64,000 nt of DNA from assembly GCA_001724265.1 (NCBI GenBank), contig MEDY01000225.1, positions 1-64,000 on the forward strand, read 5' to 3'. Below, piece after piece: positions 13,151 to 63,000 of this stretch. Positions within the stretch are counted from its first letter, which is position 1. Every line of letters starts with the position of its first letter. Position numbers and translations under genes: made by a program. Source of the DNA: Rhizaria sp. SCN 62-66 (lineage: Eukaryota). Below the pieces are notes generated by a model. The model made no database searches, was not told the origin of the DNA, and worked only from the letters and a program-made list of their open reading frames with translations.

Positions 13151-14010
13151 GCATCGCGGCGGCGCGTATCCACTCATCTGCCACATTCGGAGATGCCGAT
13201 CTAGCGCTGTGTTGTACGCACTACAGGTGAGGTGAGCACGCGTGTGAAGTACTTGTGAGTGACTGTGAGCGAAGCTCGAGTCTCGGAGACACGGAGGGTC
13301 CCGTCGTTCCTGCTCTCCCACACGGGACAGCCTGCTTATTGCCGGCGAGTCTGCGGGATGTGGCGCGAGGGGCTGAGCGAATGGCGGGCCAATGGGCGAG
13401 CGAGCTCTGGGAGAGTGCACAAACTCGGTGAGAGTTGGATGATGCGATCTCTCGACACTATCACGCTCTGCTTTCTTTCGCGTTGTTTCTGTTTTTGTTC
13501 CTTTAAGACTACACACAGACTACGAATATTACTATGAGTACTATTGATAATATCTTATTTCTTATACCTAAACTCAGCATAATTCATCTCGACCTCGACA
13601 ACAGTGCATGTCTTGCCCACCATGATTCATGGATCTCAAAACATCAATACATGCGAACTTTACGAACTCCGTGTTTTGTACTACTGAAATAACTGATCTT
13701 TGTGCATGTATTTGGGCGCTGCATTACAACATGCATTAAGAATAATAATCACGGGCCTTCATTGTGTATTTGGTGCCAGGTCTTCTTGATCAGATAAAAC
13801 GAAACATAGTAGTCACAATCATCAGCGTCATCAAAGAAGCCGCGATGCGCCGTGAGGGGACTTCGAGAGGTCTTGCGCGCGCTTCCACAACGCACGCATC
13901 TCCCTGACATACCATAATCAATTCACACATGTTTTTCACGTTAAGTCATTTCAGTTCTCACTTCATTAATCAGCGATCTCTGCGGCCAGGGCAGGCAATC
14001 ACGCGCGGCT

Positions 14011-15047: not shown

Positions 15048-15558
15048 GTGCTTCTGAGAGACGCGAGTATAGTGACAAGAAGATATGATTGAGAAAAATA
15101 ATATAGAATATACGGAGATCCGCACTATAAATAGCTACTCAAAGAGTCTGAAACCGTATTAGCGGATGGTGTAGATATTTTGCCTCTCTACAAAACTTCG
15201 GTCGTTCGCTGCTCGCGCGACGCTTGCCGACTGCCCCCAAAATAACGGTTTCGGTATCCCACTTTTCTCAGATCAAATCTGCGACTTCCATTCGTACTAG
15301 GTGACCCATTGCTCAATTTTTGAATTAAACGATAGTTATTTTGCTTGAATCTATAATTAAAATGCTGATCATGCTGATCACGTTTCTCTACACTCCTGAA
15401 CTGATCATAAGCACTGTCTTAGCAAGTGTCCTTTGAAGCTATCACACCCCGAGGCTTGCTGCTGCCATATCCTATATTGTCGCTCACAATTCATCGCACA
15501 TGGTGAAATCTGTTGTTTTATACCTCCCCATTTGTACACCATTGCTTATGTATAGCTA

Positions 15559-17868: not shown

Positions 17869-18508
17869 GCAGGTAAATTGCGACTTCGTGCGCTTACAAC
17901 TTGGTAGACAGGGCCAGTTTACAGCATCATGATAAGGGCGTCACACTGGGCGGAAGACGCGTGGAAGCAATGACGGCGGGCTCCTGACTCGCGACAACTC
18001 AAGTGGATAAGGTTTTGCGCACAATTAAGTTCCAACGCGTTTTCGCATTTTTCTCTCTTTCTAAATTAAGTACTACTGGTAAGAAGTGATTTTTGCGGAT
18101 ATCTGTGCCGGATTTGCGTTTTGACTCAAGATGTGTTGTCAAGGTATATGTGTATGCTACGTACGAAATCTTGTTAATTGTTGTCATATATAGTCAATTT
18201 TGGTATTTTCTTAATACCACGAGTTAATAGATAAAACCTATGCTAAATATTATCGTACGGACGTAATTTTATTTATTTTTATTTATCCTAGTACATTGTA
18301 CTTTTACAACCAGATTGTCAGGATCGATCAGTTGATTTGCAGAGATTTTTTTGACCTATCCATTGTGGCATGCTTAAAAGGCCATATCGAGATAAAGCAC
18401 TCGACCACGAATCAACAGATGCTAGGATGCCTCGACCTGTTTGCGACTCGGATATAAACTCGGGAAATCAACGTTTGTCATGGACAAATCGATGGGTCGA
18501 TATGACAT

Positions 18509-25011: not shown

Positions 25012-28000
25012 TCAGATCAGCTCAAAGCCCTCGTCGCTGCCACTGCTAAGCATGGCGCGCACTCCCGGCGCCGCCCCGTCGCCATCCCCGGTCGGCGACC
25101 GGGACTGCGACAGCGCCAGCGACAGGTCAGGCACACTTCGCTCCTGACCTTGCTCAGGCTGTTGCGCCTGCGCCTGCTGCAAGTCTAGCTCGCGCGGCGG
25201 GCGCGAGTGCGACTGCGAGCGCACGTGCGCCTGCGTCGCCCCCTTGGCCTCGGCGTCGGCGCTGGTGCGAGCGGCGCCAGCGTCCGAGTCGGCGGCCGGC
25301 GGCTGCGACAGTGAGACTGACAGCGCGGGCGCTTGTCCGAGGCCCCTCTGTTGCTGCAGCGGCTGCTGCTGCGGAGCCCGCGACAGCGACTGCGCCTGCG
25401 AGAGCAGGGGCGACAGCGACTGCGAGAACGACAGCCCCGTCGCGTCGGACACGAGCTCGAACCCGAGACTGGGGCTTCCGCTCTGCTCAGCGGGAGCGGC
25501 AGCTGAACCGGCGCCAACGCCGGGCCTAGCACCGGCGGCTCGGGGGCTCATGCCAGAGCTGGAACCGGAGCTGATGCTAAAGCCAGAGCTCAGGCTAGCG
25601 CCAGTGCCAGAGCGAGAGTCGGAGCCAACGGGGAACGCAGGCACGGGACAAGGCGCCGCGGGACAAGGCGCCGCGTTGCCGGTGGCAGCCGCAGCGGCCG
25701 CCGCTTGCTGACGTCCCATCTGCACCTGCTTCTGTAACTGCGCCTTCGCCTGCGACTGCGCATGTGCGCCAAGCGACCGCGAGCCGAGCGGCTGGGAGGC
25801 GGGGCTTGATAGCGCGGCGTCGCTGCTCAGCGCAAAGACGTCGCTGCCGTTGGCCAGCGCGTCATCGCTGCCGCCGCTGGCCGCGGGGCCGTCGCTGCTC
25901 GCCGCAAGCACGCCGCTGAGCGTCGCGCTAATCACCGTGGCGCAGTCAGCGTCCCCGTCGGCGTCGCCGCCCTTATCGCTCTCCTTGTCGCCCGAGCCGG
26001 TGCGCCGCGCGGTCAGCGTCGGAACAGGCGCGGCCAGATCGGCGGCGCGGTCCCCTGCGCGGTCCGCGGGGGCGACGGGCGGCGTGACGCTGAGCGCGCC
26101 GTCGAACGGCGAGTCCAGGCCTGCCTCCACCGGCCCGAAGACGCCGGGGAACGCACCGGCGCCGTACGCACCGAGCGGGGGGCTGGCGTCGGACTCGGTC
26201 AGCGTGGCGCTCAGAGACACGGCGGCGGCGACGGCAGCGGAGGCTGCGCCGTCGGTCGTGGGGCTCAGGCCGGAGTCGGCGCGGTGCGAGTCGCTGAGCG
26301 AGGAGGCGAAGAGACTGGCGCCCACGCTCGTGGGTGACTGCGAGTGTCCGTGGGCGAGGCCGTGTCCGTGGCTCTGGCTGTGCACCGAGGGACTGGTCGC
26401 CGCCTGGCTGTGCGTCGACTGGCTGTGCGCTGAGTGACTATGCGCGAGAGGGTCGGAGGACAGGTCCGCCGTGCCCACGGTCGCAGCTGCGTTCATGTTC
26501 GCTATTGCAGCGGCAGGCGCCGTCACTGACGAACCCGCAGTCGCAGTCGCAGCGGGCTCCGTCGCTGCAGCAGATGCTGCAGCGGGTGCCGCAGCAGAAA
26601 CGAAGACAGGAGCGGTGATCGGCACGGGCGCGAGCGTCGCAGCACTGGTCGTTGCAGCAACATGCGCAGCGACAGCGACAGGGGGAGTGCCCGACGACGG
26701 CGAAGTGAGGCCGCGTTGTTGCGGCTGGGCCACACTTCCGCTGAAGTTGTAACCACCAGTGCCGTTGCTGATGCCGTTGCTGTTGTAGCCCGCGCCGAAG
26801 GGCGCCGCGTAGGCGCGCACGTCGCTGGCGTCGCTGAGCCCGCGGCGGCGTGTGGCCACCGGCGGCAGCGGGGGTGTCGCAGCCGCAGCGCCCAGCGCAG
26901 TCATCGCCGTGGCTGCGGCAGTGCTCGATGAGGCGAAGGACAGCGTCGTCGCTGCGGCGCCGGCAGCAGCGCCGCGCGAGCCCGATAGCGGCAGCGGTGG
27001 CGCGCCGCCGCGGGCGCCGCCGCCGCCGTGCTTGGAGGGCGAGCCGAGGGTGCCGGTGGCGGTGCCAGGCACACGCAGTGTGGGCAGCGGCGTTGACGGC
27101 GCGGGGATGCCGACGCTCGAGGGCACGCCGTCCAGCTCCAACTCCAGCTCGGCCTCGGAGGCGCTCCCGAGCACGCTCTCGGGCGCCACCGAGGCGGCGG
27201 CCGCGCGCAGGCCACCGGCGGGCGCAAAGGGAGCCTGCGAGAGGGCCGGCGACAGCGGCTGCACCGGGCCCGGCGACGGCGACGACGCGAGCGCCAGCGC
27301 CAGCGGCTCAGCGGCCAGCGCGGCAAGATGCGCCTGCGGCTGCTGACTCGACTTCAGCGCGGGCGCGGGCAGCAGCGGCGCCGGAGCGGCGGCGGGTCCG
27401 TGTCCGGGTCCCTGCGCGCTGGCAGGGCCGAACCAGTAGGGCGAGGGCTGGCCCGCGGCGTTGATGGGCGGCGAGTCGTCGGCGCTGTTGTCGTCGTCAA
27501 GTCCGCTGCCGTGACCGCGCCCGTGACCGTGGGCAGCGCGACTGCCGGGGCTGCGGATGTGCGCGGACGGGACTTGCGCGCGCGCGCGTTGCGGGCGCGG
27601 GACGCCTGCTGCGGCCGCGGCCGCAGCAGCCTTGGCGGCGCCCGCGCTCGGCCGGCCCGCGCCGCCCGCGAGCAGGTGCATCTGCGTCTGCGAGTGTGAG
27701 TGCGTCAGCGCCTGCGCGCCGCTGTGCGGCACGGGGTCCAGCGCGGGCGTGCCGCTGCCACCGCCGCGCCCGCCGCGCGCAAGGCTCAGCCCCACGCCCA
27801 GCCGCGCCGCGCCGCTGCCGCCGTGGTCGTGGCCGTGGCAGTGGGGCGCAAGCGGCGCGCCGTGGCCGGTGGTGACCGTGGGCGCCGCCGCGGGGGCCGC
27901 GAAGAGCAGCCCCGCGTCGTCGTCGTCGCCGTGGCTGTGCTCGTGGGCGTAGTCGCCGTCGCCGTGCTCGTCGCCGTGGTATCCGTAGTCGAGGCTGTCG

Positions 28001-31000
28001 TCAAGCGCATTCCCGTGCTCCGCCCCGCCGCGCTGACCGGCGTTGGCCGAAGACATCGTGGGCGCATGTCCGTGTGCGTGCGCGGCGCCGATGACGCTGC
28101 TCGCAACCGCGGCGCCGAGTCCGTGGCCGCCGGCGTGCGCGTAGTCGAAGTCCGAATGGCTGTCCAAGTCGCCCACGGCGCTGCGCCAGTCGAGCTCGAA
28201 CGCGCTGTCGGCGCCGCGCACGTGTGCCATGTCCTCTTCTTCTTCCTCCTCCGCGTCCGCACCGGCGCCAGTGCCGCGCGCGCGGCCGCTGGCGAGGCCG
28301 CCGGCATGGCCGCCGTGGACGACGCTGTGCGCGTGCGCTGCTGGGGGCGCGCGTCCAAAGCCGAAACCGTGGCCGTGCGCGGCGACGGGCACGATGATCG
28401 GGGCGGCGTTCGCCGGCACGACAATAGCGGCGACGCCGGTGTCCGCATTATTCGCGCTGCTGCTAGTAATGTTGTTGTTCGCGTTGTAGTAGTCGGCGAT
28501 GTCGCTGTGCGCGTACTGATACACCCCGTTGTACTGCTGCTGCAGCGGCACTGACTGCTGCTTAGGCAGCGACTGCTGCTGCGTCAGCGTGAGCGAGGCC
28601 GCCGACCGCAGCAAGTCCATCGCGGGCGGCGCCAGCGCGAGCGGCAGCGCGGACTCTGCTCTCGCGTCGGCGTCGGCGTCGGCGTCAGCGGCACCGTTGC
28701 TGGGGCCGAATAGGGGCGTCACGAACGGCAGGCTTGCAACATCGGCCTCGGCACTGTGCTGGCGCTGACGCTGTTCCTGGGCAATTGCAGTCGCAGCGGT
28801 GCGGCGCGGAGGCTGCGACTTCGCATGTGCCTGCACGAACGCGGGAGCAAGCGAGGACGACTCAGCGACGCTGAGGGCGAGGCCACCGGGCACAAATCGA
28901 GCAGGTGCATGGTGCGCAGCAGAAACAGCGTTGGCAGCTGCCGCGGAAGCAAGCACGGGGCCAGCCAGCGTCACGACTGGCGTCATCGCCGCGCCCACAA
29001 TCACTACATTCCCAGACACACTGGCGCTGCTACTGCTGCTGGTGTGGGTAGGCAGCGCGTCTGTGCTAGCCTCGGTCGCTGTCGCTAGAGGGGCAGGCTT
29101 GGCGACAGAAAGTGAGAGCTCGTTCACATGAGGACTGCCATCGTTGCTGCTGCTAACAGCTTTGCTGCCATCGTCCGCGTTTACGATAACAGAGCCCACG
29201 GCTGCGCCTTCCACCGCGATTAACTACACTTGATGACGCTACAACTGCTGCTGCTTCTGCTGTTGCTGTTGCGGCGGCTGTTGCTGCGGAGCGGGGCGCA
29301 CCGAGCCCGCGGACATGACTGAGAGCGCGAGTCCGCCGGGCGCACCGAAGGCACGCGGCTGGCGCTGCTGCTGCTGCTGCTGCTGTTTCGCCTGCGTCTG
29401 CGTCTTCGCCGCCGCACCCGACGCCGCAGCGAGCGCCGTGGGTGAGGCGGCTGTGACCGCAGCGGCGATCGCAGCCGCCACAGTCATGTCTTCGGAGGCG
29501 TCTGGCGAGGCGGGCCGCGACATGTCGACGCGCACGCCCACGGCGCACTCGAGCGCGTGGCCGCACGCGCACTCGCACTGCGCAGCGCTGCCCGCCGTGG
29601 TCGCGTGCGAAGCGGACGCAGCCGCGCAGCAGCAGCCGGGGACCGCCGCGAGCGGCGCGGCGGGAGCAGGGTCCACACCAGTCGCGGCCGCGACGACGGA
29701 GGCCGCGATGGGCGAAAAGGGCAGCGCAGCCGCCGCAGTCGCGTTTGCAGGCGCAGGCGCGGTCACGCCGGCGTTGGCGTTGTGCGCGGCGGCGAACGGG
29801 GCAGCGCTGCTGGCGCGAGCGAGCGAGGTCCCGACGCCAGAGTTGGCGCCGCAAGCGCCGACACCATTCTCAGCCGCCGCAGTGACCGCAGCAGCCGCGT
29901 CACAGTTAGTTGCGGCGCCATTGCCCGTACCGGCGACCGGCGCGCGCGACTGCTCTGCAGCGTTGTGCGCGGACACGGCGAGACCCGCGTGCGCAGCGGT
30001 GGCGGCGGACATGGTCAGCGACGTCGTGAGCGTAACGGTGCGCCGCGGGGCCGTCTTGAAGGCGCCCGCGCCGCCCGAGGCCACGATCGCGGCGGCCGCG
30101 GCGGGATCCACGCGAGGACCGCAGCCCGCAGCCGCCGCAGCGACGGGGGCGCCGCTGTCGCCCATGCTATCGCTGTCGCCGTCGCCGAGACTGTTGTTGT
30201 TGCTCCGGCCGGCGCCCGCGCCCTGTCCGTTGCCGTTGCCGTTGTCGTGGGTGAGGCCGTACAGGAAGCCGGGGCTGGGGGCCGCGGAGGGACCGAGGCT
30301 TGCGCGCGAGGTCCGGTGGCGGCGCACGCCTGAGGCCAAGCCAGCCCCGCTCCCGCTACCATTTGCGGGCTCGGCGCCAAAGCCAATGGCAGATCCAGCA
30401 GTGGCAGCGGCGGCAGCGGTCGGCGCGGGCGTCTGCGCCGTGGCAGGGGCGATGCCGAGGACCCGCCCGTGACCGTGGGCGCGGCCGTTGGCGTGGTTGA
30501 GGCCGTGGCCGGCGGAGACGATGGGCAGCACAACAGTGCTGCTGACGCCGCTGACGCCACTGTAGTGGCTCGCGGCGGGGCTGTAGTACGACCCGTCTTC
30601 CTGCTCGCCGTCGTGCTCACGGTCAGCCTCGCGACCGAGCTCTTGCTGGTCCTGCGCGGGCACATTCGCAGACGTAACATTCCCGGCGTTCTCGACACGG
30701 GCGTCGCCGGCGACACCAACTCTGAGCCCAAGGCCGAGTCCGGTGTCGTGAGCGTTGTATGCAATGTTGTTGTTGTTCGCCGTTGGCGGGAGCACGCAGA
30801 TCGTGGAGGCCGTCTCGCCCTCGCTGTCAGCCCACCGCGCCGCGCCCTCCAGTTCGGACGCCGTGATCGACTCGCAGTAGCCACGCGCGCGCACTGCACC
30901 CGCGTCCAGGTTGGACCCAACTTGGGCGCCGACGGTCGCGCTCGCGTCGGGCATAGCTGCGTTGCCGTTGCTGCTATCGTTGTCCGAGAAGATGCGCGCA

Positions 31001-33131
31001 ATGTTCGCGTAGGCGGCTTCATCATCGTCGTCGACATCGACGTCAAACGCAATTCGGCCACCATTGCCGTTTCTAACAGTTGCAGTATTCGGGCGACCGT
31101 TTCCGTTCGCGTTGGCCTGCCTCTTTGCACTAGTATTATTGCCGGCAGTGTGGGCAGTCGCGAGGTGCGCGAACGGGTTTTGCGCGTCACCATCGAGACT
31201 GCGCCGGGGCCCATGCACCCCGTGTCCGTGACCGTGGGCGTGGGCGTGACTGTGCGCACTGGCTGTACCGGCGATACCCGTGCCACCGTGGTCGCGGTCA
31301 ATGCGCTGCTCACGGTCACGTTCGTGGTAGCGGGCGCCATCGGCAGACTCGCCGTCGCCGTGCTGCTGCTGCTGCTGGGTGTCGTGGTAGTGCTACTCGT
31401 GCATGATGACGCTGTGCGCCTGGCTGTGGCCGAACTCGCTGCCGCTCTCGCCGACGCCGTCACAGTAGCCGTCGCTGTCGCCGCCGTGCCCGAAGTCGCC
31501 GTCGCCGTCGCCCGCAAGGAACTCGCTCGGCACGTCCGTCAGCGAGCAGCCGGGCCCGCCGTCGCCGAGGCCGAGGCCCAGTGCAGCGGCGCCGCCGTGG
31601 CCCGCGGCCGCTGGGTCGCGGCCTACGAGGACGAGACTCCCTCTCCCGCCGCCGCCGCCGTTGCTGTTGCTGCACGCGCTGGCGTTGACGCCCGTGCTGC
31701 GCTGCAACGACCGCAACTGCAACGTGTTGGCGTCTTCGCCACCGCCATAGCCCAGCAGCGCGTGGACGCTGCCGGCGCGGGGGACCGCGCCCCCACCGCC
31801 GCTGCCGCCGCTGCCGCTGCTCACGGTCGTCGTGGCCGCGGCGGCTGCGGAGGCCGCCGGGGGCACCTGCGGTCCAAGGCCCGCGTACTGGCTGGGGCTG
31901 CCCGTGTAGGTGGCCGCGCCGACGCCGGCCGAGGCGGGCCGCGCCGGGTACGCTGCAGACTGCGACTGCGGGCTCAGCGACTGCGGCCCCTGCGGGTGAG
32001 TCTGTTGCTGACTCTGCAGCTGCTGCAGCTGGCGCTGGCGCTGGTAGCTCTGCGCGGCGCGGCGCGCGTCGGCGTAGTAGTCGTCGCTGCTGCTCCCGCT
32101 GCCGTCGGCGTCGTTGCCGTCGGCGTTGCCGCTGTTATTGAGGCTGCCATTGCCGGCGGCCGCGGCGTGCTGCCGCGCCTGGCCGTAAGAGGCCAGCGCC
32201 GAGAGCCGGTTGGACATCTTCTGCAGCAGGTCCTGAATGTGCGCGTCATACCCGCTCTCCACCGCCGCGGCGTCGCTGTTGCTGTTGTTGCCGTTGCCGT
32301 TCGCTTGCGCGCTGTCGTCGGCGTCGCTGTAGGCGTTCGCGAGGGGGTTCACGGTCGTGCTGCTGGCGCGGGCGCGGGCGCGCGTGTTGCGCGAAGCCCG
32401 GCCGGCACCGCTGTTGGTGCTGTTGGCCCCGTTCAGACTGCCCGTGCAGTCGTTGGCGCTCGCGGTCGGCGGGAGGCCGAGCAAAGAAGACGAAGGAGCG
32501 AACGCGCCAGTTGTCGCAGCCGCCGCGCCAGCGGCAGCAGCTGGGCCCGTGCCGCCCAGCTGAAGACTCAGACCAAGCGTGGCGGCCTTGCGGCGGTCCG
32601 CCTCGTTGTCCTCGCAGTCGTCCTCGTCCTCGTCGTCGCCGCCGCGGCCGTGCAGGTAGTGGCTCTCGCTGTGAGTTTGGCTGCCGGCGCCGCCGTGGCC
32701 GTGGCCGGAGCCGTGGAGGCCGTGGCGCGGCGCAGCGCGCTCGTCCTCGTCCAGTGACAAGCCGCCATCGTCGTCGGTAAGCAGTGCTGTGCTCGGGCAG
32801 AGGGTCGAAACGGGCGGAGACCGTTGACAGTGCGGGTGATGAGAGAAGGGTCAAGGCAGGCAGTAAAGGAGAAGAATGCGAGTTGTAAAGGCAAATTAGG
32901 GGATAGGAGAGCATCGACAGACAAATAGATACAATATGTACGCGTGCTCACGGTACTGCTATTGCGATTCCATGAACGATATTTGTGTTGATATCTCGCA
33001 TCAAATGTGCTTGTGTGCGTAGACGTACGGTCGATTGAATCGTCCTCATCGGTGCGCGCGACTCCGCGACGGCGATGAGCCAGCGGACAGCACCAACGTG
33101 CGCACCAGCAACGCGCAAGCCAACCGCTCAT
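25012..33131 (-). CDS. Very large (about 2650 aa) low-complexity protein with three in-frame TAG codons (exons 33131-32942, 32786-25012)
   Basis: ORFs 32760-31393, 31218-29239 and 29214-25012 share one frame and are separated only by TAG (31393-5, 29239-41, 29224-6). A phase-1 GTACAT..CAG intron adds a Cys-rich N-terminal exon. Stop is TGA. Confidence 0.72.
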
Positions 33132-33915: not shown

Positions 33916-36377
33916 ATGTCAGGTACGTTTTCGTTTCCAAGCATTTGCAAAACTTTGGTCGCTTTCAAACTTCCCTCTCCCTTACCATGATGACTACTTG
34001 CGCTTTGATCCTCCACAGCCCCCGCGGTCCCCATTCGCGTGAACGTGTCGAGTAGCGCGGCCGCACCCGCAGTGCCCCATCGCTCCGTGAACTCGCCTAC
34101 CTCCAAAGAGGCTCCCACTCCCTCATCTTCGACAGCAGCTGCTGCGTCTGCGTCGGGCCCTGCAAACGATGACACGGCACCCTCGACCCACGCGCCCGCG
34201 ACGAGTTCTACTGCGGAGCCTGTGAACACTGTGGCCGCAGGCACCGTGTCGCCGACGACGCCCGCGACGCTGCAGCTGCGCCCGCGCGGCGCGCTCAACG
34301 GCCAGATCTTCGACCTGTACACGCAGTCGCAGTTCGACGACTGCCTGCGCCTCATCGACCGCGCGCTCGCGCTCCCCACGCCGCCCAACTCGCTCTCCAC
34401 CGGCGCCGGCGCTGCGTCCGCAGCGACCGCGGCCGTGGCCGCGGGGGTGACGGCGACCGCGAGTTCGCCCGACGTGAGCGCCATGACGAGCGGCGTGCTC
34501 TCATCGCCCTTCACCGCGCCGGCCGCGGTCGACTCGGATTACCCGCTCTTCGTGCGCGGGCTAATCTTGCGCCAGCGCGGACAAGTTGCGCGCGCGCTGG
34601 AGGCGTTCCAGGCGGCGCTGCGGCTGAACCCGCGCTCGGCCGACAACGCCAAGCACGTTGCGCGCTGTCTATACTTGTTGGGCCACGTACCGCGCGCGCT
34701 TGAGGTCTACGACAAGGTCGTTGCCATGCTTGGTGGCGCGGCAGGCGCGGCCGCGGGCGACGCTGACGTGCTGCTCGGCGTCGGCGAGTGCTACATGCGC
34801 CAGGGCCGCTTTGCCGAGGCCGCCAAGGTGCTGCGCGACTCGATCGCGTAGCGGCCCAGCGACGCCGCCTACCTCGCGCTATGCCAGGCGCTCACGCTCG
34901 GCGGCGACACACCCGGCGCGCTCCAGGCGCACACCGACGCGCTCGACTTCAGCCCCGAAAACGCAGAGGTACGTTCGCAGCAGTTTGAAATATGTTCAAT
35001 TTACCCATCATCCATTCTCACAATCTCTCATTATCACACACTCACACATCTCTTTCTTGTCTTTGCATTGCTTTTTTCTCATCACACAGCTGCTGACCCG
35101 GCTGGGCGCTCTGTACCTGCGCGCGGGCGCGCCGCGTCAGGCGTTTGACCTGCTGGGCACGGCGCTGACGCATGTGCCCGAGCACGCAGAGGCGAACTTC
35201 GCCGCCGCAGCAATCACGCTCCAGCACAAGGAGTTCGACGCTGCGCTGCTCAAGTACCGGTACGCTTTGTGAATTGTCCACCTGATTATTTGTGTAGGAT
35301 GCGTAAAAGTCATCGGAAAAACACAAAACTATTTTGTTCTTGTACTTATGTCTCATTGTCATTCTGTCGTTCTATTGTTGTCCTGCGCATTCTTACAGTG
35401 TCGTTGCGCACGCTGACCCTGACAGCGCCGAGTTGTGGACGGATATTGGTCTGTGTCTCTGGGGCAAGGGCCGCGCTTCTGCCGCGGCGGCGTGCCTCAA
35501 CCGCGCGCTTTTCATCTGCCCCACGCTGTGGTCCGCGGCCTACAACCGCGCGCTGGTGGCGCTGACGGCCGCGCAGTACGCCACGGCGTGTCACCACCTC
35601 ACGGCCGCAGTCGCGCTCAATCCCACGCACGCGCCCTCGTTCGCCGCGCTCGGCGTCGCGCTTGGCCGCATGGGCGATGTGACGAACGCGTCGGCGGCGT
35701 ACGACCGCTCTCTGCGTCTGGCGCCGCACTCGGCGCCAGTGTACCTCAACTACGCCGCGATGCTGCTTAACGCCGCGGCCGCGGACCCGGAGACCGCGCG
35801 CAGCGCCGGCGGCGCGCTAACACCCCAGGAGACCAAAGCCGCGGCGTTGTGGGACCGCTACCGCTCGCTGTTCGCCACGGCGACGGCGGCCGCGGACGCC
35901 GCCTCTGCATCTGCCTCAGCCGCCGCGGTGCGTGGGTCCGGCGCTGCGGCTGCGCCCACGGGGTCGCCCGCCGCGCTGGCGGCCGCGGCGCTGGCGCCCT
36001 ATTCGCGCGCCGAGATTGAGCTCACCGCACAGCAGGTCGCGACTGCGCTGCAGCACGCGCGCGGGCGTGCCGCCGCCGACGCTGCGGTCGCCGCGGCCGC
36101 CGCGGGCGCCATGGCCGCCAACAGCAGCTCGCCCGGCGCGCCCGTAGGGCCGCACAGCATGATGCCCGCGCCGCCACAGACGCGCGCTACGCCCGCTGCG
36201 CCGCCGCGCCCTGTCAAGATCAGCAGCGGCGGCAGCGGCAGCGGCGGCGGCAGGCACTCGAACGCCCTTGAAGACAGCTTCGAGGCTGACAATAACAAAG
36301 CCGGTGGAGGGCTGCCACCGCCGGTGCTGCGGCCGCCGCCCAGGACTAAGCCCGAGGAAGACGATGCTGCAGTTTGA
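33916..36377 (+). CDS. BBS4: BBSome subunit BBS4 with an in-frame TAG at 34849-34851 (exons 33916-33922, 34019-34968, 35090-35259, 35399-36377)
   Basis: YPLFVRGLILRQRG, ALRLNPRSADNAKHVARCLYLLG, ALDFSPENAE|LLTRLGALYL, AFDLLGTALTH, FDAALLKYR|VVA and SAELWTDIGLCLWGK match the BBS4 TPR series as I recall it. Stop is TGA. Confidence 0.9.
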
Positions 36378-36718: not shown

Positions 36719-39700
36719 TCAATCATATGTTTCAGCAGCACCGTAGCCACCTCGAAACCCCGCTGAGAGCGCGGCCGCAGAGGCCGCAGCCGCAGCCGCG
36801 GCAGCCGCAGCCGCCGCAGAGGAGGACGGCGACGCTAACAGGGCCTGGCGCTCCGAAGCGCGGCCTGCGTACTCAGCCGCGCCGGCGCCCAGCGAGCCCG
36901 CGTGATAAATGTCGCCGCCGTCGTCATCGTCGTCGTCACCGCTCACGCTCTGGCTGCTGCCGCGCGTGACGACCAGCGGCGTCGCGCCGGGCCCGCGCGC
37001 GGTGAGCGAGAACGCGCCTCCCGCGGCCGCCGCAGCGTCGGCGTCGCCTGCCCAGCCGCCGCCGGCGCCCCAGGTGTCGCTGTTGCCGCTGCTGCCGCCG
37101 CTGCTGCTGCCGCCGCTGCTGCTGCCGCCGCTATTGTTGTTGTCGCCGCTGGTGGTCGGCGCCGCGGTCGAGCCGCCGTTAAGGCTGCTGCAGTCGCCGG
37201 CCTGGTAGAACGCACCGCTGTCGCTACCATTGTAGCTGTCAGCGGCAGCGTCGTCGCCGCAGTTGCTCTCCGTGCAGGAGCCGCTGGCGGCGGCGCGGGG
37301 GCGGCGCACGAGGCGCGAGAGCAGCAGCGTGGCGGGCGAGCGCACCGAGTGGCCCGCCGCGCCCAGCGCCACGCAGCCGCGCGCGATGATCGCCGCGCCG
37401 CTGTGCGCGCCGACCGGCGAGGACCCGGGGCAGTTGTCGGCGTCGGCGTCGCAGCAGTCGGCGCGAGAAGGCGAGCCGGGGCTGCGCGGCGAAGCGATGG
37501 GGCAGCACGGCGCGGTCTCGCAGCACTCAGCATCACCGCCGCTCCCAACGACTTGGCCCCTGCTCGTGGCGCCCGCGGCGGTACCGAGGTGGTCGCCGTG
37601 GTTGTTGGCGCTGTAGACGCAGATGCCCGCGACGGCGATGGCCCACGCGGCGGCCACGCCGGCGCCCGCCAGCAGCGTCAGCACCCAGTAGTAATCGAGC
37701 GCCTCCTTGAGTGCGTCGGCCTCGGCCGCGGACAGCGCGACGCCGCGCGCGGTAGTGTTAAACGAAACGGACGGCGCGCGCGTGCGGGAGGCGCCGCGCC
37801 GCGCCTTGCCGCCGCGGCCCGCCTTGGCGTCGGTCTCAGCGCCAGACTCTACAGCGGCATCTGCAGTAGCAGTGATGGCGCTGTCCGTATCGACCTTGTT
37901 CTTTGACTCGGTGTCGGTGGCAGCACCAGCGACTACGACGGCGTCGACGTCGTTCTCAGTCGCGACAACAAACGCAGCATTGGCGGCGTCAGCGGAGGCG
38001 CGCGCGGCGGCCTTGGCCTTCGTCGCGAGAGCCTGCTTGCTGGCGCGCACAGCGGCGAGCGCGGCGGCCGCGGCGGCGTCAGCGGCGGCCTGCGCCTCCC
38101 TGGCCTTCGCCGCCAGCGCGCCAAGCTCCGCAGCCTCGTCAGCAGGGCTGCCAGCGGCGGCACCGGCGCTGGTGCTGGGGGGCAGGTGCAGGTGCGTCGC
38201 GAGGTCGGCGCGCGCGGCCGCGGCCAGCGCAGCGCGGCGGGCCTCGGACGCCGCGGCCGCGGAGGCGCGCGCCGCCCTGGCCACTGCGGCGTCCAGCGGC
38301 GAGTCCTTGCTCTCACTTTTGCTGTCATGCTCGCCGTCACTGCCGGCGTCCGCGCCGTCTAAGGGGTACTTAGCGTGGTCGAGCGGGGAGAGCAGGTCGA
38401 GCGCGCGCTGGTGCTCGGCGCGGGCGAGCCAGTCGGGCGAGATAGCCCAGGGCAGCAGGTTCACGTCGTGCACCATGGCGCCCAGTGCGAACGTCACGTC
38501 GGTCCCTGACAGAGAGCGCACAAACGTCACCGTGGGGCCGCTCTGCGCCTGCGCGCCAGGCTGCGCAGCGTCCGCGCTCGCAGTGCTACTGCTGCTGTTG
38601 TTGTTGTTCGAGGCAGGCGCGTTGCCCTTGTTCGCGGTACTGGCGCCAGCGCGCGGCTCGAGAGGGATGCCGATGCCGTCGTGGAGCAGCGCGACAGTGT
38701 AGGCGGCGAGCCAGCAGTAGGAGCGCAGGTAGTACTTGTTGGCCGTGGGGTAGCGCCGCAGCAGCTCGGCCCAAGGTACGGCGCAGAAGTCGCGGCCCGC
38801 GCGCGCGAGGTCCGCCAGCGAGGCGTCGGCGGGCAGCCCGATGAAGTCGGGGAAGTAGGAGAAGCCCGAGAAGGCGTAGAAGGAGCGCACCTCGGCCAGC
38901 GGCGGCCGGTACAGCCCGAAGAAGGACGTGCACTGGCCGGGGAACGGCGACGACAGCGACTTGGTCTCCGAGTGACACGGGCCGGTCAGGCTGTGCAGCG
39001 ATATGCGAATGTGGGACAAGAATAGAGGAGAGAACCGATGTGTGAGTGACATGTGGAATTGTGCGAGATAAATTAGAGATAAGCCTGGACATTTTTCGAG
39101 CATTATTGTTACGCTACAAGGCAAGTTGCTCGTAATCTGCGTTACTGTGTCGCCGTACCGTGTGTTGACAAGCTCCGTGGCGAGCGCGTAGCAGCGGTCA
39201 AAGTCCGCCTTGCCCTCGACCACGACCTCGAGCTCCTCGCTGTCGTCGTAGTCGGAGTCGTCGCCGCCGCCGCTAGCGTTGGCAGCAGCGCTGCCACCCG
39301 CGGCGTCGCTCGTTGCGGCCCTCGCCGTCTTCGCCCGGCCGCCGCTCTCGTCGCGCACCGGCCGGATGGGACTCGCGCCCGCAGCGTCAGCGTCGCTGTC
39401 GTCGTCGCCGACGTCGACGCCGCGCGCGCTCTGGCCCGGGCGCCCCGCGCCGCCCTCCTTGACGGTCACGGGCACCCCGCCACCAGCACCACTCCCACCA
39501 CCACCACCAGCAGCCGCAGCAACGCCATGGCTGCGGGGGCGGCGGCGCAGCGGGTGCGTGGCGGCCAGACCCATGGGCCCGGGGCCCAGGCGCGGCAGCA
39601 CGCCCGGCGCGTACACGGCCTCGTACCCCGTCGGCAGGCACGGCGACTGGAACACTGGGTCCAGCTCGGCCTCCGCCCCGTCACTATGGGCCCCTGCGTC

Positions 39701-46000: not shown

Positions 46001-48636
46001 GGCAGCGCAGCGGGCAGAAACCCGGGCACAAGGTACCCGCGCCAACCAAGCACGGGAGGCGTCACGGGTGTGCTGCTGTCATTGAAGCTCACATTTGTAG
46101 AACTACTGCTGCTGCCAGGCGTGGTTCTGTGCGCGCCGATACTGACGCTCGCGTTAGGGCGGCTGTCACTCCTGTGTGCGCTGGCGTTGTGGCGCAGTGT
46201 AAGGCCAGCTCCGGTGCGCGGCGTTTGGACCGGCGTCGTCACCGGTGTGCGCGATCGAGACTGAGACAACTGACGCACAGCTCGCGCAGTTTGCCCCGCT
46301 GAAGACTACAAAGCGCGCCCTGCTGCGAAAACACCGGCCCGCGCGCCGAACACCGTTCCAGCGACGCTGTCACGTTCGCCGCCAGCAGCAGCGTCGCTCA
46401 CACCGGCTGCTCCGGTCGCAAACGTGCCGGCGGAACGTGCAGCGGCGGCACGCGCAGCGTTGGCGCGCGCGGCGGAGTCCATGAAGAGCAGCAGCGACTC
46501 GAGCGCTCGCGCAGCGACCGCGGCGGCGGCGGCAGGCGGCACCGCGGCCACCGCGCAGTGCGGCAAGCGCAGCAGCGGGTCTTGCAGATGCGGCAGCTGC
46601 TGCGACACAGGCGCAGCGAGGCTCGTGCTGGCCACGGACTGGGACCAGGATTCATACACGCGTTGCTGCTGCTGCTGTCCAGTTGGACCTCTTGATTGGG
46701 GCGAAAGTGCGGTTTTAGACTCATCTTGCAAGTAATCGGGCAAATATTTCTGCCAGTCAAACGCTTTACTAAAAGCTGGTGCAGTAACGCTTGTCGCTTC
46801 GCCGATGGAAGATGTTGCACCAAACCCAGGGGCGCTTTGCTGCCGTTGCAACTGCAGCGGCGGCGGTGGCAGCGACGGGCGCGCGCCAACGGGCAGCGCG
46901 AGAACAGGCACGCCTTTCGCCAACGCTAGCGCGTTTATCGCGCCAAGCCGATGCGCTCCAAGCCTGGGCGCGGCACTGCTATTGCAGTTGATGCTCCCAT
47001 TGCCGGAGGGCGGGAACAGAGCGCAGCGCTCGCGGTCGCTGGCGGCAACCTCGCCCAGACACCAGCGGCGCCACAGCTCCGGCACCGACGCCGACGCCAA
47101 AGCTGGCACTGACACCGGCACCGACGCACCGGCCGTCTGCGCGCACGCGGTTGCCGGTGCGGACTAGTCACTGTCGCCAGCGCCGTCGCCGCCGCCGCCG
47201 GCGCGGACGCTATCCGGGGACGGGAAGCTGGGGTCCAGCGCGGGGTCCGGGATCGCGACGCAGCCCCAGCGCTCGCCGAGCTCGTGCTGCCGCGACTGTA
47301 ATGCCGTTGCGGCGGTAGCGGGCGAGGGGCAGCAGTACGGGTACAGCGGAGACTGCAGAAGCAGCGTGGCAGCCACAACCGACCAGTGCGCGCCGTCGCC
47401 CCTGGGAGGCTGTTGTCCGCCGACGTCGCCGCTACATGTCTCGCCCACGCCGGATGAGACAGTTGCGAGCTGTGGGTACACCGCGGGCAGCAGCGGCGCG
47501 AACGCGAAGGCGACGCCGCCCGTGCTCGCGCTGCGCGCACCGCCGCCGTGGCTGTAGTGCACACCGCTGCCGCCGCCGTCACCGCCGCAGAGTGCGCTGC
47601 TGTCATGCGGGCTGGGCGCCGCGGCGGGCGCCGGACGAGTGAGGCCTTGCGCGACGCGCGGGCTCAGCGCCACCAGCTGCAGCGCCGCGCAAAAGGCCGG
47701 GAAAGTCAGTCCGCGCGGCGGCGGCGGCGGCGCGCGGCCGGCGCGCGCCAGGCTGTCAGCCAGCGCGGGCGGCGGCCAGATGCGCGTCTCGCTCCCCGTC
47801 TCGCTCTGCTGCAGTGCTCCGCTCGCTGCGCCGTCACCGTCACCGTCGTCAGCGTCAGCGCCAGCGGGACTGGCGCGACGTGGGCGCAGCGAGAGCGCTG
47901 CGGCGAAGACCGCGGCGGCGTCTGCGCGCGAGAGCGCGGCCGGGAAGAGCCCGTACGCGGCGCAGAAGCGCACGAAGCCGCCCTCGCTCAGCACCAGCGC
48001 CAGCGGGGCGCGGCCGCACTGGGACGGCGGCGAGGCCTGCCGGTCACCAGTGCGAGCGTGGCCGTGACCGTGGCCGTGGCTAAAACTGTGGCCGTGGCTG
48101 AAACTGTGGCTGTGGCTGTGGCTATGGTTGTGGGGGCTGCTGCGACTGAGGGTTGTGCGTTGGGGCGACGACACAACGGGCAGCGGGACGGAGGCAATAG
48201 CGGCAAGGACAGCGTGGAACGGGAAAATGGACGCCGAGTCAGCATCGTATCCACTAGCCACCGACACAACGCAGTCGCCTGGGGCTTCTTTCGCGCCATT
48301 GGCATCACCGGTTCTACTGTTTGTGCCAAGTACATCGTGAGAAGTGGCCCCGCTGAGTGACGCTAACGGGGACAACACGGGCTGCAGTGACGCAAACGCG
48401 GCGAAGGCGGCGTGGAGCCCGCGCGCGTGGTGCGCGAGCACGGCGGCGGGCGACGGCGGCAGCGCCAACGGGTGCGCCAGCACGGCCGTGTCGTAGGTCG
48501 CGGCCCAGGCCTGCAAACTGGGGCGAGCAGGCCAGGGCCCCGGAGCTAACGGAGGAAGCGAGGAAAACTGTTGTGCATAGAAGGCAGACTCTGGTGCCAG
48601 GCCGAGCGCGGCAGCGGCCGCGGCAGGGGCGGGCAT
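43054..48636 (-). CDS. Large (about 1860 aa) low-complexity protein with two in-frame TAG codons and a small EF-hand/p25-like helical motif
   Basis: ORFs 48762-47164, 47121-46306 and 46278-43054 share one frame and are separated only by TAG (47164-6, 46306-8). Motif LSEGGFVRFCAAYGLFPAALSR...LTFPAFCAALQLVA. The 5' end is uncertain. Stop is TGA. Confidence 0.7.
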
Positions 48637-56529: not shown

Positions 56530-58878
56530 ATGATGTCGGTCTCTGCCTCAGACCCATCAAAGAGCGCCATAAAAGAACATATAACAAACAGCGCCCAAAC
56601 CTCAGAAAGCACATCATCCACCCATACCTTAATGGTGAACCAGACCACTCCTAGCCCCATGGTTGTTTGTATGGGATCGATCCTTCTCGACGACAACGTC
56701 GTCTCCACGACATATGAGCCGCTGACGCTGTCCCTGAGTGAGTCCAGCCGCCGCGCGTCCGCCGAGTCACGAGCCAACGCAGAATCCGCCGGCGCGACAT
56801 TTGCCGGCGCGGTCTCCGCGCGCGGGGGCTCCGCGCCGGGCCCGCCGCGTAACGTGCGCTACGCGCTCTTCCCGGCGCTGCTGCGGCTGTATCTAGTGCG
56901 CTCGGAGAGCGGCCGGCGCGTGCGCAACGTCTACGATATGGTCGCCGAAGACTTCGCGCGCTTTATCCCGGCCGCGACCGGTGCCCCCGGGCTAGAGCGC
57001 GTGTGTGGCGTGAGCGCGCGCGAGCTGCAGCGGTACGGCGCGTGGCTGCGGACCGCGCGCGGCGTCGGGCTGGTGCTGCGCTAGTGCATGGCCTTCGTGG
57101 GCGACCTCTGGTACCGTCACCACGACTGGGACACGCTGCGCCCGCGCGCCGGCATGGGTCTCGACCCCGACGCGGGCGACGCGGGCGGCGCGCCGCTGCC
57201 GCCGGAAACGTGGCGCCAGATCGCAGAGAAGTACGTTGCTTCACGTTGATTGCCGATGAAAACAGCTTTGAGTCCCGTGTCTTCCTAGAATCGCCAATGC
57301 GTATCAGTACATGATACATCTCACATAATTTAGATATGATAACAAACTTAAAAACTAGAATCTTCATCACACTGCCATCTTTCTTACTTCAGTTATGCGC
57401 CGTACAACAAGAGTTCGTGCAGCAACTTCAAGCACATGGCCGACGGCTCGTGCTGGCACGACCAAATTGGACTCAACTACCGCGCCGCGTTCGCTCTTCT
57501 GCGCGAGTTTAATGCGGCACCAGGGAACCACGCGGCGGTTGCTGCGCACCGCAACGTGCCCATGGTGTTCCCTATCTCAGCCGACGCGCGCGTCAATGGC
57601 GACAATAGCCGCAACCGCGGCAACGGCAGCTACTCCGGGTCTCCGGCGGAGAACGGTAGGCGCGGCGCCGCGGCTGCTTTGCCCAGCGCCGTCGCGCACA
57701 CTGGCGCGGACGCGGGTCAGCTCCTTCGCACTGCTGCCGCGGCGGTCACCCCCAGCGCCACACCAGCAAGCGCTGCAGGAACAAGCGCAGCTGGCCCACG
57801 CTCACCGCTGCACACAATGCTACTAAGCCTCGCCGCACAGGCGAGTCCCCCTGCTGCGGGCGTGATAGTAAAGGTCGGGTCCGTTGCCACTCAGGCTTCT
57901 GCAACCTGTGCCGAAGCGGACACAAGCCCTGCCGGGAGCCGTCCTCCCGGGAGCCGTCTTCCCGGCGCCGCCGCCCAAATCAGCCCCGCGGACCGCAGCA
58001 ACCCGGCCGCGTTTCACTAGCCATTGACGTTCTCCCCGACGGCGCCCGCCTTCGCGGCCGAGTCCACCTCCGCCTCCGCCACCGCCCCGTCACCCGAGAT
58101 GCAGGTTGCGACCGCGCCACGCAAAGCTATTGCCGAGTCACATGACGCGATTGCAACTGCGTCGCACGAGGCGCTGGTGACCGCGCCGCGCGACGGGGGC
58201 GGGTCGCTGGCACGGCAGCAGATCGCGGACGCCGTCGCGGAGTCCTTTCTGCGCAGCGAACGTCTGGCCGCCGTCCTGCCGGGGCTGCTCCAGGAGGGGC
58301 TTACGCAGGTCCGGCGCTCGCAACCGCGCGGCGCGACGCCCGCCGAGACCGATGCGGCGCTGACGCGCGCGCGGGCCGCGATCTCTGTCATGGTACAGAC
58401 CGAGGTCGCCGCCGAGACCGCGTGGTTTTGCGCAGAGGCGCGCGTCAGGGCCGCGCAGGCGCACTCGCGCGCGCTCGGGCCCGTGCGCGCGGCCGACGCG
58501 GCGCGGCTGCAATGCGCGAGTGCGGCGATGGCGAAGCTCGTGGCGACCGCGAAGCACGCGGCAGCCACGGCGCCGAAGCGCGGGGCCTCGGGGGCCGAGG
58601 TGGGCCGGTGGGCCGAGGTAAGCCGGCGGGCCGAGTCTCAGCAGCCGGCGGCCGCGCCGCAAAGCGCGGTCCTGATGCCGGTCAGCGCGGCAGGCAGGGC
58701 CGCGCTGGCGGGCGTGCACGCGTTCTGGCGGCAGCAGAGCGTCTTCGCGCGCGAGTACGCACTGGGGCACTGGCCGCGCGTCCGGCGCACGAGACTCAGC
58801 TGCAGCGACCCGCCGGCGCGCGAACATCCGCCGGCTAGCTAGGCGCTGAAGTCGTGGTCTGTGTCGGTCTTCAGCTCG

Positions 58879-58912
<34 letters not shown>

Positions 58913-59028
58913 GGCGAGGGACGTTGCGAGTCTTCAAACCGTAGGAGACATTGAGCTCCGGTAAAGGCACAAGCAGCGCGGTGGTACATATGTGCGACAA
59001 TGATAGGAGCCAACTGGGTGACGCTTAA
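56530..59028 (+). CDS. Hypothetical protein (about 780 aa) with four in-frame TAG codons (exons 56530-57230, 57393-59028)
   Basis: TAG at 57082-4, 58018-20, 58840-2 and 58942-4. A phase-2 GTACGT..CAG intron links the frame downstream of the first TAG to ORF 57436. The first TAA/TGA in frame is TAA 59026-8. Confidence 0.7.
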
Positions 59029-60033: not shown

Positions 60034-63000
60034 ATGAACCTTACCCCCGCAACGTCATCGCACTCAGCCAGCATTGCGGCCCTCGCAGCGGCCGCCGCGG
60101 CTGCCGCAGCCGCTGCCACGGCCCCCGTCGACATCCCCCAGCTGATCGCCCCGCGCCCTCTCGCCCAGCCCGCTGCCCAGGTAGACCAGTCAGTCCCGTC
60201 CTTGGCCAAGGCCCCAGGCGCAGTGCCGCGTCGCAAGCGCGCCGCGGACTCAGCGTTCTCTGTTGGCGCGGCCCCGCGCGGCGCGGCCGCCAAGGGCAGG
60301 CGCGGCGCCGGCGCTGGCTTAGGTCCCGGCGCTGGCTTAGGTCCCGGCGCTGGCGGTGCTGGCGCTGGCTTAGGCGATGCTGGCGCAGCGGCCAGGGCGC
60401 CGCGCGCGCAGTCGCAGGCCGCAGCGCCGCGCACGAAGCGGGTTGCCGCGTCGACGCGGGTGAAGCGCGAGGCCTCAAGAAGCGGCGACTCCACTCGCGG
60501 CCGTGCCGGACCCGTCGCCGTCACTGGAGCCGGCTCCTAGCACAACGCGATCGAGCTGAGCAGTGATGACAGCGACGACGATAACGGTAACGATGGCGGC
60601 GACAAGAAGAAGGCGCCAGCGAGGAGGGCGGTGCGCAAAACTGGCATAAGCGGCCGCAAGAACTCGCTCCGCGCGGGCGCCGCCGGTGCCGCCAACGACG
60701 GCGACGAGGACGACTTAAGTGGCGACAGCGGTCAGAGCGGGAGCGGCGGCAACGGGAGCGAGAGCGACTCCGATGGGAGCGGCAAGCAGCCGCGCGCGAA
60801 GCGGCCCCGCGCGGCCCCGGGCGCTGGGAGGCCGCCGGCGTCGCCCTCCGCGGCACGGATGGTGACCGTGGCACGCTACCAGCCGCCGCCGCGGCCGGCG
60901 TCGGCGCCGGGTGCGCTGCCGCCGTGCCCCTGGGCGCCGCGCTCGCTGATCGTGCCCGCCTCTACGCCCAGCCCGGTGCCGACTGCGCACAGCAACAACA
61001 ACAACAATAACAACAATGTCGGCCGTGTCGCCGGCGCGAGGAACGCCCGTGCGGGCGCGCCCGCCGGCGCCGTCATTCTCGCCGCCGCCGCAGCCGAGGC
61101 AGCAACGCGCGCGACAGAGGCGGAACACTTCGTCGCGGCCGCGGCCGCCGCGGACGCCGCCGCGCAAAGCGACGAGGTGACGCACGACGACGTGCCGTTC
61201 GTCGAGGCGCGGCTGCCCGCGGCGCGCGTGACGACCGTGACGTACGCTCGCCCGATGCCGCTGCCGACGCTGGCGTCGGCGCGCGCGGCGCTGCGCGAGG
61301 CCCGCGCGGGGCTGGGCCGCATGGTGACCGTTCACCGCTTTACGCCCTCGCCGCCGCACACGCAGCCGCCCTCGGCGGGCGCCGACGCGACAGTCTTCGC
61401 CGCCGTGTCCGGCTACGGGTGGATGAGCACCCGCATCACGCCTGTGCCGACCGACGGCGTGCCGCTCAACTCCGTCACGGGCACCGAGTACAATTCGGGC
61501 AGGAAGCCCGTGCCGGTCGCGGCGAAGCTACGCGCGCTGGCCGCCACGGAGCGCGAGGCCGACGCGGCCCAGCCCTCGGAGGCCGAGATCGCGGCGGCCA
61601 TTGTCAGCACTGTGACCGAGACGGCGCCCTCGGTCGAGGCGTGCGGCGGACAGCGGCTTGTGTTCGTGCGGCCCTCGCACACGCACATGTTTCCCGGCCC
61701 TGCCTTCGCCCGCGTCCCGATTCCGGAGGCCGTTGCCAAGCGCCGGGAAGGCATTGCAAAGAAGATGTTGATCAGTCAGAAAGATGACCCAACAACGACA
61801 GTTGCCATTTCTGGTGATACTATCGTTGCTGCCACTACTATTGCTACTGACGCCGCGGCCGCCGCTTCCTCCGGCGACCGCGCCGCACCGAAGCCCCGCC
61901 GAAAGTCCGCCGCCTCGTCGAATGCGGCCGTGGCCGTCTCTGCTGCGCCGGCGTCCGACGGCGCAACCCCCGCGTCGCCGGCGTCGCCCTCGGCCGCTTC
62001 GTCCTCGGCCGCGTCGCCGGCGGTCGCGTCGCCGGCAGTCGCGTCGCTGGCGGTCGCGCGCCCGCGCCGCGTCCTGGGGCCCGGCGGCGAGGACCTGGCC
62101 AAGGCGCTGCGCAAGGCCGTGAAGCGCGCCGAGGACGCGCGCCTGGCCGTGGGGCCCGCGCAGACCGTGGCGCAGTCCGCGGCCAGCGACGTGGCCGAGG
62201 CCGAGGAGGGCGGCGGCTCGGCGAGCTAGGTCGCCGGCCTGCGCAAGGCGTTCGAGGTCGCCCAGTCGTGGCTCGTGGCCAAGCGGCAGGCCGTGCTCGC
62301 CGCCGAGACCGACGTCGCCGCCAAGACCGCCGCGCTGGACGCGGCTCGGGGCGCGAGAGCGGGGACCATGGCGTTGATGCTGGCAGAGGACGGTACGCGT
62401 GATGCGGACGCGAGCGATATTCACGAAGCTTATCACGATGTCATCCCAATGAACGACTCAGACGGCGCATCTGCTTCTAGTGTAGCGCCCGCAGCTGCCA
62501 TTTCTGCTGCCGCCGCTGCTGCCGCTGCCGCTGCAGCCGCAGCTGCTACAACTGCGACACCAGATGTCGGGCGTAAGCAGAAACTCGCAATGAACAAGGC
62601 ACCTACACCCGCGCCCAGCTCAGCTACTGAGTCACGCATAGTCCCCGCATTGGGTCATGCGTCCACGGTGAAGCCGGTGAAGGCGGCGGCCCTTCCCGTG
62701 GCTGCGCCGCAAAATTCCGCGGGTGCGCCTGACCTGCAGACGCGCGCACTGCGCGAATGGCTGGCCGTCGCGCGCGCGCAAGGCTGTGACGTGCACAGCT
62801 CATGCGCGCGCACGGTGCTCTGCAGCGACTTTATCGCGGCCCGCCTCGGCGCGCTGCTGGACCAGTTTCAGCCCTACGTCACTTTCGCCTAGTACGACGA
62901 CCTGTGTGCCGCGCTGCGCCGCATGCCGCTGCACGCGCTGCAGGCCGCCGCGCGCTCGCTGGCGCTGCACGCGCGCGCGCGCGACCTGAGCACCTTCCTC

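Follow-up and report, generated by a model that had tools for sequence, protein, structure and literature searches.

Does TAG end genes in the nuclear genome of Rhizaria sp. SCN 62-66, or is it read as an amino acid and, if so, as which one? The question is raised by a 64,000-nucleotide stretch of this eukaryote's assembly (contig MEDY01000225.1, or C225, positions 1-64000; hereafter, the window), where a low-complexity frame of 2,612 codons on the minus strand (25012..32850) is open only if TAG is read through. Three TAG codons are the sole interruptions of this frame, which ends with TGA and matches no Pfam family: one at residue 486 (31393..31395), one following a Gln run at residue 1204 (29239..29241), and one at residue 1209 (29224..29226). 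All three are present in the contexts described by a sequence-only reading of the window, which had taken poly-Gln surroundings to suggest that UAG encodes glutamine. We find TAG to be a sense codon here, and its most probable meaning, to which we give a probability of about 0.83 on the basis of conserved protein columns and the body of a tRNA with a CUA anticodon, to be glutamate, with UAA and UGA serving as stops.

A codon-phase model was applied to approximately 850 kb of the genome, asking whether coding sequence resumes after each stop-type codon. At the strict setting, coding continued past 10 of 15 TAG codons, relative to 0 of 40 TAA and 0 of 23 TGA codons (Fisher p = 2e-9); at the loose setting, the corresponding counts were 22/44, 0/81 and 1/92. 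The model was trained partly on open reading frames (ORFs) from the window, and some loci had been picked for holding a TAG; the strict TAG count outside the window was 5/8, and in nine more 10-kb stretches, not picked for an in-frame TAG, coding continued past TAG in 1/2 cases, TAA in 0/15 and TGA in 0/12. Likely gene ends, defined by coding sequence before the codon and less than 52% GC after it, comprised 61 TAA, 41 TGA and three TAG codons, one of the last being intronic by eye. TAA, the commonest stop, also ends the genes for the release factor eRF1 and the dyneins, and we saw none in frame. Of 102 host stops, 85 have a purine directly after them. Both the read-through test and stop usage thus bear out the earlier claim that TAG is a sense codon.

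As a sense codon, TAG is rare. No exonic TAG was found in 39,662 dynein codons, versus 11 in the 8,965 codons of the window ORFs, and a rough estimate for the screened domains is approximately one per 9,000 codons. Three TAGs initially counted in the dyneins were rejected, as they lie by eye at pyrimidine-rich intron ends. Several other codons are also very rare in the dyneins (AGA 7, AGG 8, ATA 6 and TTA 13 occurrences). One could suppose that UAG mostly retains its role as a stop, with a weak suppressor permitting slight readthrough, and that many TAG-bearing genes are decaying copies; a single CUA tRNA gene, whose anticodon stem is closed by a G-T pair, the TAGs at a Trp and at a hydrophobic column (discussed later), and the three TAGs scored as possible gene ends would suit such a situation. 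We nevertheless consider it very improbable, given that TAG interrupts the sole eRF1 gene found as well as SUV3, Ubc6 and BBS4, that it accounts for at most two of the approximately 104 likely gene ends, and that TAA and TGA interrupt no genes in the same test.

We then asked which residue UAG specifies. Eighteen Pfam families were screened genome-wide for matches with internal stops, and matches at intron edges were dropped (among the TAG-bearing ones, these were dynein, kinesin, DEAD, SNF2, two helicases, five kinases and one Ras); matches holding only TAA or TGA were not inspected singly. The ABC, WD40, AAA, RRM, tRNA-synt_1c and eEF1A_C screens yielded no TAG-bearing match. With the addition of two sites from the coding model (Ubc6 and BBS4), 15 in-domain TAG sites were scored. 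Four of them fall at sharp columns, at which Gln is nearly absent. The TAG at eRF1 codon 107 (contig C63, approximately 103463-103465; L082:1594-1596) aligns gap-free to human Glu107, in a column with E 106, D 10, V 1 and Q 0 among 117 homologs (three of the 120 matches, all long multi-copy entries, were left out). A TAG at the kinase hinge Glu occupies a column with E 15, D 2, P 1, H 1 and Q 0 among 19 host kinases, and there Pfam scores Glu 2.4 bits over Gln; a PDB search with this kinase at 1e-12 gave no match. The SUV3 column reads D 90, E 6 and Q 1 (118 homologs, with two fragments of the protein itself left out), and that of Ubc6, for which the query carried Gln at the site, D 93, E 19 and Q 2 (150 homologs).

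When each residue was placed at the 15 sites, the summed Pfam scores relative to Glu were -3.8 bits for Gln, -5.6 for Lys, -13.1 for Ser, -19.6 for Tyr, -26.2 for Leu and -26.8 for Trp; the value for Asp, hand-summed over 14 sites, was -11.4. By these residue-swap sums, Leu, Tyr, Trp, Ser and Asp are excluded, in agreement with the earlier view that Leu is unlikely. That view had set aside the site in the BBS4-like gene as favoring Leu: two mammalian BBS4 chains indeed have Leu there, but the Pfam TPR_19 scores are 40.4 for Gln, 40.1 for Glu and 37.7 for Leu. A homolog search with BBS4 returned four unrelated TPR proteins, and the column therefore rests on the two mammalian chains. The USP site, where human USP5 has a Cys bordering an alignment gap, is uninformative. 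The case for Glu over Gln is carried chiefly by the family columns and the tRNA, and less by the Pfam sums.

A single tRNA with a CUA anticodon was found (contig C84, approximately 76008-76080, minus strand) when the genome was searched with two patterns for the anticodon and one for the T arm; the wider anticodon pattern had 27 matches, of which ARAGORN calls just this one a CUA tRNA. It scores 58 bits as a tRNA in Rfam, and host kinesin and kinase genes lie on the same contig. The pyrrolysine (Pyl) label that ARAGORN assigns reflects the anticodon; Rfam gives a generic tRNA, and the body is Glu-like; enzymes for Pyl were not searched for. The variable loop has 4 nt, and the tRNA is therefore not of the Leu or Ser type. 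A pattern built from its T arm and acceptor end occurs at nine places, namely the tRNA itself and eight tRNA-Glu(CTC) genes. When 32 positions (acceptor stem, discriminator and T arm) were compared with 33 distinct host tRNAs, Glu(CTC) matched at 26 and Glu(TTC) at 25, the next best at 21, and Gln(CTG) and Gln(TTG) at 14 and 13, respectively. The first five acceptor pairs are those of both host Glu tRNAs, the T stem is that of Glu(CTC), and G73 is as in Glu(TTC); the D and anticodon arms have diverged. By its sequence, then, this is a tRNA of the Glu type, and not of the Gln or Leu type between which the sequence-only reading had looked for a decision; the sole CUA tRNA found also differs in this respect from the Gln-derived one expected of an Iotanema-type code. 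No tRNA with a UUA anticodon is among the 28 anticodon types seen, although no directed search was made for one and Rfam scored 63 of 506 candidates. The host tRNA-Gln(TTG) (L019:1500-1574) is itself strongly unlike tRNA-Gln(CTG) in the D and anticodon arms.

The release factor is altered at residues that read the codon. One eRF1 was found in the genome, the other match being Pelota by eye. It carries the changes T32S, G57S, T58K, M34V, L124M, L126M and K130Q, while E55, NIKS, L69 and S70 are intact; among the eRF1 homologs, T32 and G57 are kept in 117/117 and T58 in 116/117. T32 forms a bond with the G of UAG, and Iotanema has Gly at that position (PMC5304391); Lys is found at position 58 in Tetrahymena and Blepharisma (PMC4695839), the Tetrahymena motifs reportedly raising readthrough of UAG while sparing UAA and UGA (PMC4695839). 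In yeast eRF1, T32A is lethal and E107A halves readthrough (PMC4381064). A search under the names G57S/T58K found no paper. The supplementary eRF1 alignments of PMC5304391, which lie outside the literature covered, may bear on how rare the host substitutions are.

Same-species sequencing runs from other studies agree with the assembly at the eRF1 site. The TAG is kept in run X5 (record 9, spanning 1232-1828), where no other letter is seen and the sequence is joined across the first intron, in the polyA RNA run X7 (record 15, 1166-1817) and in the DNA run X3 (record 2, 482-2107); runs X8-X22, with small word shares, were not used, and none of the pieces listed for X8 crosses the site. Since both spliced and DNA contigs keep the TAG unedited, editing, a hidden intron and assembly error are excluded at this site. 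The more general proposal that the TAGs are not real codons of the mRNA, being products of misassembly, parts of hidden introns or targets of RNA editing, could appeal to the many TAGs in Pfam matches that proved to be intron ends, but it has next to no chance of being correct: the eRF1 alignment is gap-free across the site, the codon is unchanged in DNA and spliced contigs from three other studies, and SUV3, split at its TAG in public protein sets, is seen so on seven and four contigs.

Turning to the poly-Gln contexts themselves, Gln makes up 6.9% of residues within five codons of 29 TAG sites, versus 4.9% in window ORFs (p = 0.08), a weak association. TAG codons in Gln runs are expected under any meaning of the codon, since one transition turns CAG into TAG where the sequence is unconstrained, and these contexts are best read as footprints of such mutations. 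A C follows TAG at 18 of 39 sites (p = 0.01-0.06), divided between 13/25 low-complexity and 5/14 domain sites, and C follows 51% of CAG codons in window ORFs. Selection for a leaky context after TAG was rejected, as the excess of C in low-complexity sites and not in domains fits CAG ancestry.

Two alternatives involve glutamine. In the first, UAG would encode Gln only, as in an Iotanema-type code, an option compatible with (i) the TAGs within Gln runs (window 29241, L111 and L173), (ii) the Gln that the host's ubiquitin and an internal repeat each show opposite a TAG, (iii) the CAG-like frequency of C after low-complexity TAGs, and (iv) the narrow Pfam margin of 3.8 bits. We judge it quite improbable: the CUA tRNA is far from the Gln tRNAs, none of the 15 in-domain sites was found to lie at a Gln-dominated column apart from a ubiquitin copy on an atypical, mobile-element-like contig, and Gln occurs in 0/117, 1/118, 2/150 and 0/19 sequences at the eRF1, SUV3, Ubc6 and kinase hinge columns; the assignment of UAG to Gln was therefore most likely mistaken. 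The two checks that the sequence-only reading had named as able to refute it, on conserved columns and on the CUA tRNA, both turned out against Gln. In the second, the Glu-bodied CUA tRNA would be charged mostly with Glu and partly with Gln. The synthetase for Gln recognizes U35 as well, near-cognate Gln tRNAs may contribute, and mischarging of amber suppressors with Gln is known from Escherichia coli. Such ambiguous decoding could account for Glu columns in essential genes alongside Gln contexts elsewhere, and for the extreme rarity of the codon, including its absence from dynein exons. It too seems improbable, since mutation bias alone accounts for the Gln contexts, and dependable insertion of Glu is suggested by TAGs in places as sensitive as the hinge Glu of a kinase and the single-copy eRF1 gene.

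Several observations weigh against glutamate and against the completeness of the evidence for it. Informative sites are few, with 15 in Pfam domains, and, taken singly, Pfam prefers Glu over Gln at seven, Gln over Glu at six (by 0.1-0.3 bits) and neither at two. Besides the Leu opposite the BBS4 TAG, a TAG in a Sel1-like repeat (L172) faces Trp in 2/2 paralogs, one at an ankyrin site (L214) lies at a hydrophobic column, and the two that face Gln, one opposite the host's ubiquitin and the other opposite an internal repeat (L157), are on contig C681. P0005, the closest eRF1 relative, has Val at position 107. A free alignment over the whole length of the CUA tRNA does not discriminate (Thr 48, Glu 47 and five others 46 of 73), a CUA tRNA that holds an intron or departs from the usual form would escape the anticodon patterns, and the assembly is a metagenome bin. 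The mismatched residues are what single transitions from TGG or CAG would leave behind where sequence is relaxed, whatever TAG means. Contig C681, which carries the two TAGs within the long ORF of a repeat-ubiquitin-peptidase S74 protein (L220:1-5390), is itself atypical (49.5% GC over the 6 kb covered, with an S74 chaperone domain) and looks like an integrated mobile element. We take it to resemble a polinton-like element; the 405-codon ORF on its opposite strand, which has one TAG and no Pfam match, presumably resembles a polinton-like capsid protein. The kinase and Sel1-like-repeat paralog family is TAG-rich (L171, L172 and L173, on C9, C148 and C49), and the C148 paralog has three TAGs, one of them at the Trp column.

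P0005 matches the host eRF1 at 84% and has T58K and M34V without T32S and G57S; with Val at position 107 as well, it may therefore lie outside the code change, and it may be an intermediate.

Glutamate as the meaning of UAG would be produced as follows. One tRNA-Glu-derived CUA tRNA, probably charged by glutamyl-tRNA synthetase, would read UAG and not UAA, and UAA would stay a stop because a CUA anticodon cannot read it, a line of reasoning also used in PMC11687900 and PMC5304391. Through T32S, G57S, T58K and the other changes, eRF1 would have largely ceased to recognize the G at the third position of UAG while still terminating at UAA and UGA. With one tRNA gene and residual competition from eRF1, decoding of UAG would be costly and the codon kept rare; it is commoner in low-complexity and divergent genes, many of the copies there having arisen, on this reading, from CAG by transition.

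The position of one such codon within eRF1 itself suggests a further possibility. The eRF1 mRNA carries an in-frame stop-type codon, as do those of stop-gated release factors, and we raise tentatively, as something that probably does not hold, the idea that this UAG is a feedback sensor at a young or stalled code change, at which the CUA tRNA competes with a weakened eRF1. More eRF1 would then mean more termination at its own codon 107 and hence less eRF1, and the codon undergoing reassignment would itself gate a cellular eukaryotic eRF1. In favor of feedback, conserved genes hold almost no TAG, and the chance of finding one in a gene of eRF1 length is approximately 5%, based on the rough estimate given above; yet this one stands in a strongly biased eRF1 exon, with a GC content of 0.89 at third codon positions, it is followed by A, as host stops mostly are by a purine, and the exon's only AAA codon comes next. 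Against it, the idea concerns a single site, at which the nearest relative has Val. No stable structure was detected after the TAG (z +1.0). Bacterial RF2 uses a like feedback. The class-I release factor of Mimivirus and Megavirus offers a stop-gated precedent (PMC3521657), and the readthrough and nonsense-mediated decay loop of plant eRF1-1 one by another route (PMC5397192). In the viral and plant systems, as in the host, the mRNA of a release factor is translated through a stop codon only when the termination machinery leaves that codon alone; the host differs from the viral factor and from plant eRF1-1 in that the codon lies inside a cellular ORF and is itself reassigned, regulation being hypothetical.

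Elsewhere in the window, the other contexts quoted in the sequence-only reading were likewise recovered, among further in-frame TAGs. On the minus strand, a 1,903-codon frame (48765-43054) contains TAGs at 46306..46308 and 47164..47166 (DSD-TAG-SAP, 47166). The plus strand has the TAG of the BBS4-like TPR gene (34849..34851), one with coding-like sequence on both flanks (57082..57084; LR-TAG-CMAF), one in frame 57352-59028 (58018..58020; FH-TAG-PLT), and three in frame 59818-63999 (60538..60540, GS-TAG-HNA; 62227..62229; and 62890..62892, FA-TAG-YDDL). Two more near the end of frame 57352-59028 (58840 and 58942, the latter KP-TAG-ETL; 58840..58944) were missed by the coding model and are less certain. 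Ordinary genes, annotated by eye, occupy 1-17900, 34000-35150 and 50085-51641; they include PACRG-like, RNA polymerase subunit, PP2C-like, ribosomal L31 and L35, NPC2-like, ARL6-like, TPR-protein and DnaJ genes, as well as BBS4, which has a PDB match. The region 36719-40804 has an apyrase-like appearance.

The assembly (34.9 Mb, 714 contigs) is eukaryotic, with spliceosomal introns, GC-rich exons and cilium genes. The runs bearing the eRF1 gene are bioreactor, wastewater and activated-sludge metagenomes (six with at least half of the words, one of them possibly the source), and the organism appears to be an uncultured wastewater protist with a nuclear variant code. After P0005 for eRF1 and P0126 for SUV3 (73%), both environmental, the closest matches are to eukaryotes at large. 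The host elongation factor is eEF1A, not EFL, and is divergent (L231:514-2112): its C-terminal tail is long and rich in Lys and Asp, and small indels set it apart from human eEF1A. Host ubiquitin copies (L155 and L156) are divergent, with three extra residues after the diglycine, and no head-to-tail polyubiquitin was seen in the host. Contig C706 (L031:1501-5945) is an AT-rich 18S ribosomal DNA with four group I introns by Rfam; the ORF in its first insertion has what we take to be a His-Cys-box-like motif. Its exon signatures are presumably heterolobosean-like, and the contig, which may be co-binned, was not used for placement.

To our knowledge, UAA and UAG nearly always change meaning together, and the UAG=Glu codes that we know of also reassign UAA. 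A 2024 survey gives Leu, Gln and Ser as the meanings of UAG in nuclear codes that reassign it alone (PMC11687900): Gln in Iotanema spirale, Hartmannula sinica and Trochilia petrani, where UAA is a stop; Leu in the rhizarian exLh and three phyllopharyngean metagenome-assembled genomes; and Ser in Scotinosphaera (PMC5304391, PMC11687900). The host shares with these codes UAG as the sole reassigned stop codon, internal and not terminal, UAA and UGA as terminal codons, and a CUA tRNA predicted or found as the decoder; it differs in the residue, putatively Glu, and in a probably Glu-derived tRNA. The Leu codes are a poor match, given the Pfam deficit of Leu and the lack of a long variable arm. The eRF1 of Iotanema is also altered at T32, to Gly where the host has Ser, and that of exLh has Ala at position 69, where the host keeps L69. 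UAG is far rarer in the host dyneins than in Iotanema, where it reportedly makes up approximately 8% of Gln codons.

Two further systems read UAG as Glu. In Oligohymenophorea sp. PL0344, UAA encodes Lys, UAG encodes Glu, UGA is the sole stop, and there are 10 CUA tRNA genes (PMC10553269); UAG read as Glu by a Glu-like CUA tRNA, uncoupled from UAA, would be common to both organisms, while in the host UAA is the main stop and one CUA tRNA gene was found. In Blastocrithidia and peritrich ciliates, UAA and UAG both encode Glu (PMC12153298, PMC11687900). There, as would be the case in the host to judge from sequence, a tRNA-Glu(CUA) was born from tRNA-Glu and reads UAG as Glu, and Blastocrithidia is reported to avoid its reassigned codons in highly expressed genes (PMC12153298), a likeness to the host; in contrast, the host shows no sign of UAA as a sense codon, and its coding DNA is GC-rich, whereas Blastocrithidia lost GC. 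We found no description of a code in which UAG is Glu and both UAA and UGA are stops in the open-access literature, to which our search was confined (subscription journals mostly, and supplements wholly, lay outside it).

If correct, the assignment would constitute a new combination, in which UAG alone encodes Glu, outside the AT-rich setting usual for Glu reassignment. The likely parts are in view: one tRNA and one eRF1 altered at near-invariant codon-reading residues. For practical purposes, standard gene callers cut host genes at TAG, as with SUV3, which is stored as two proteins. The eRF1 variant with T32S, G57S and T58K would provide a natural test of third-position G discrimination, and the very low UAG count suits an early stage of a code change.

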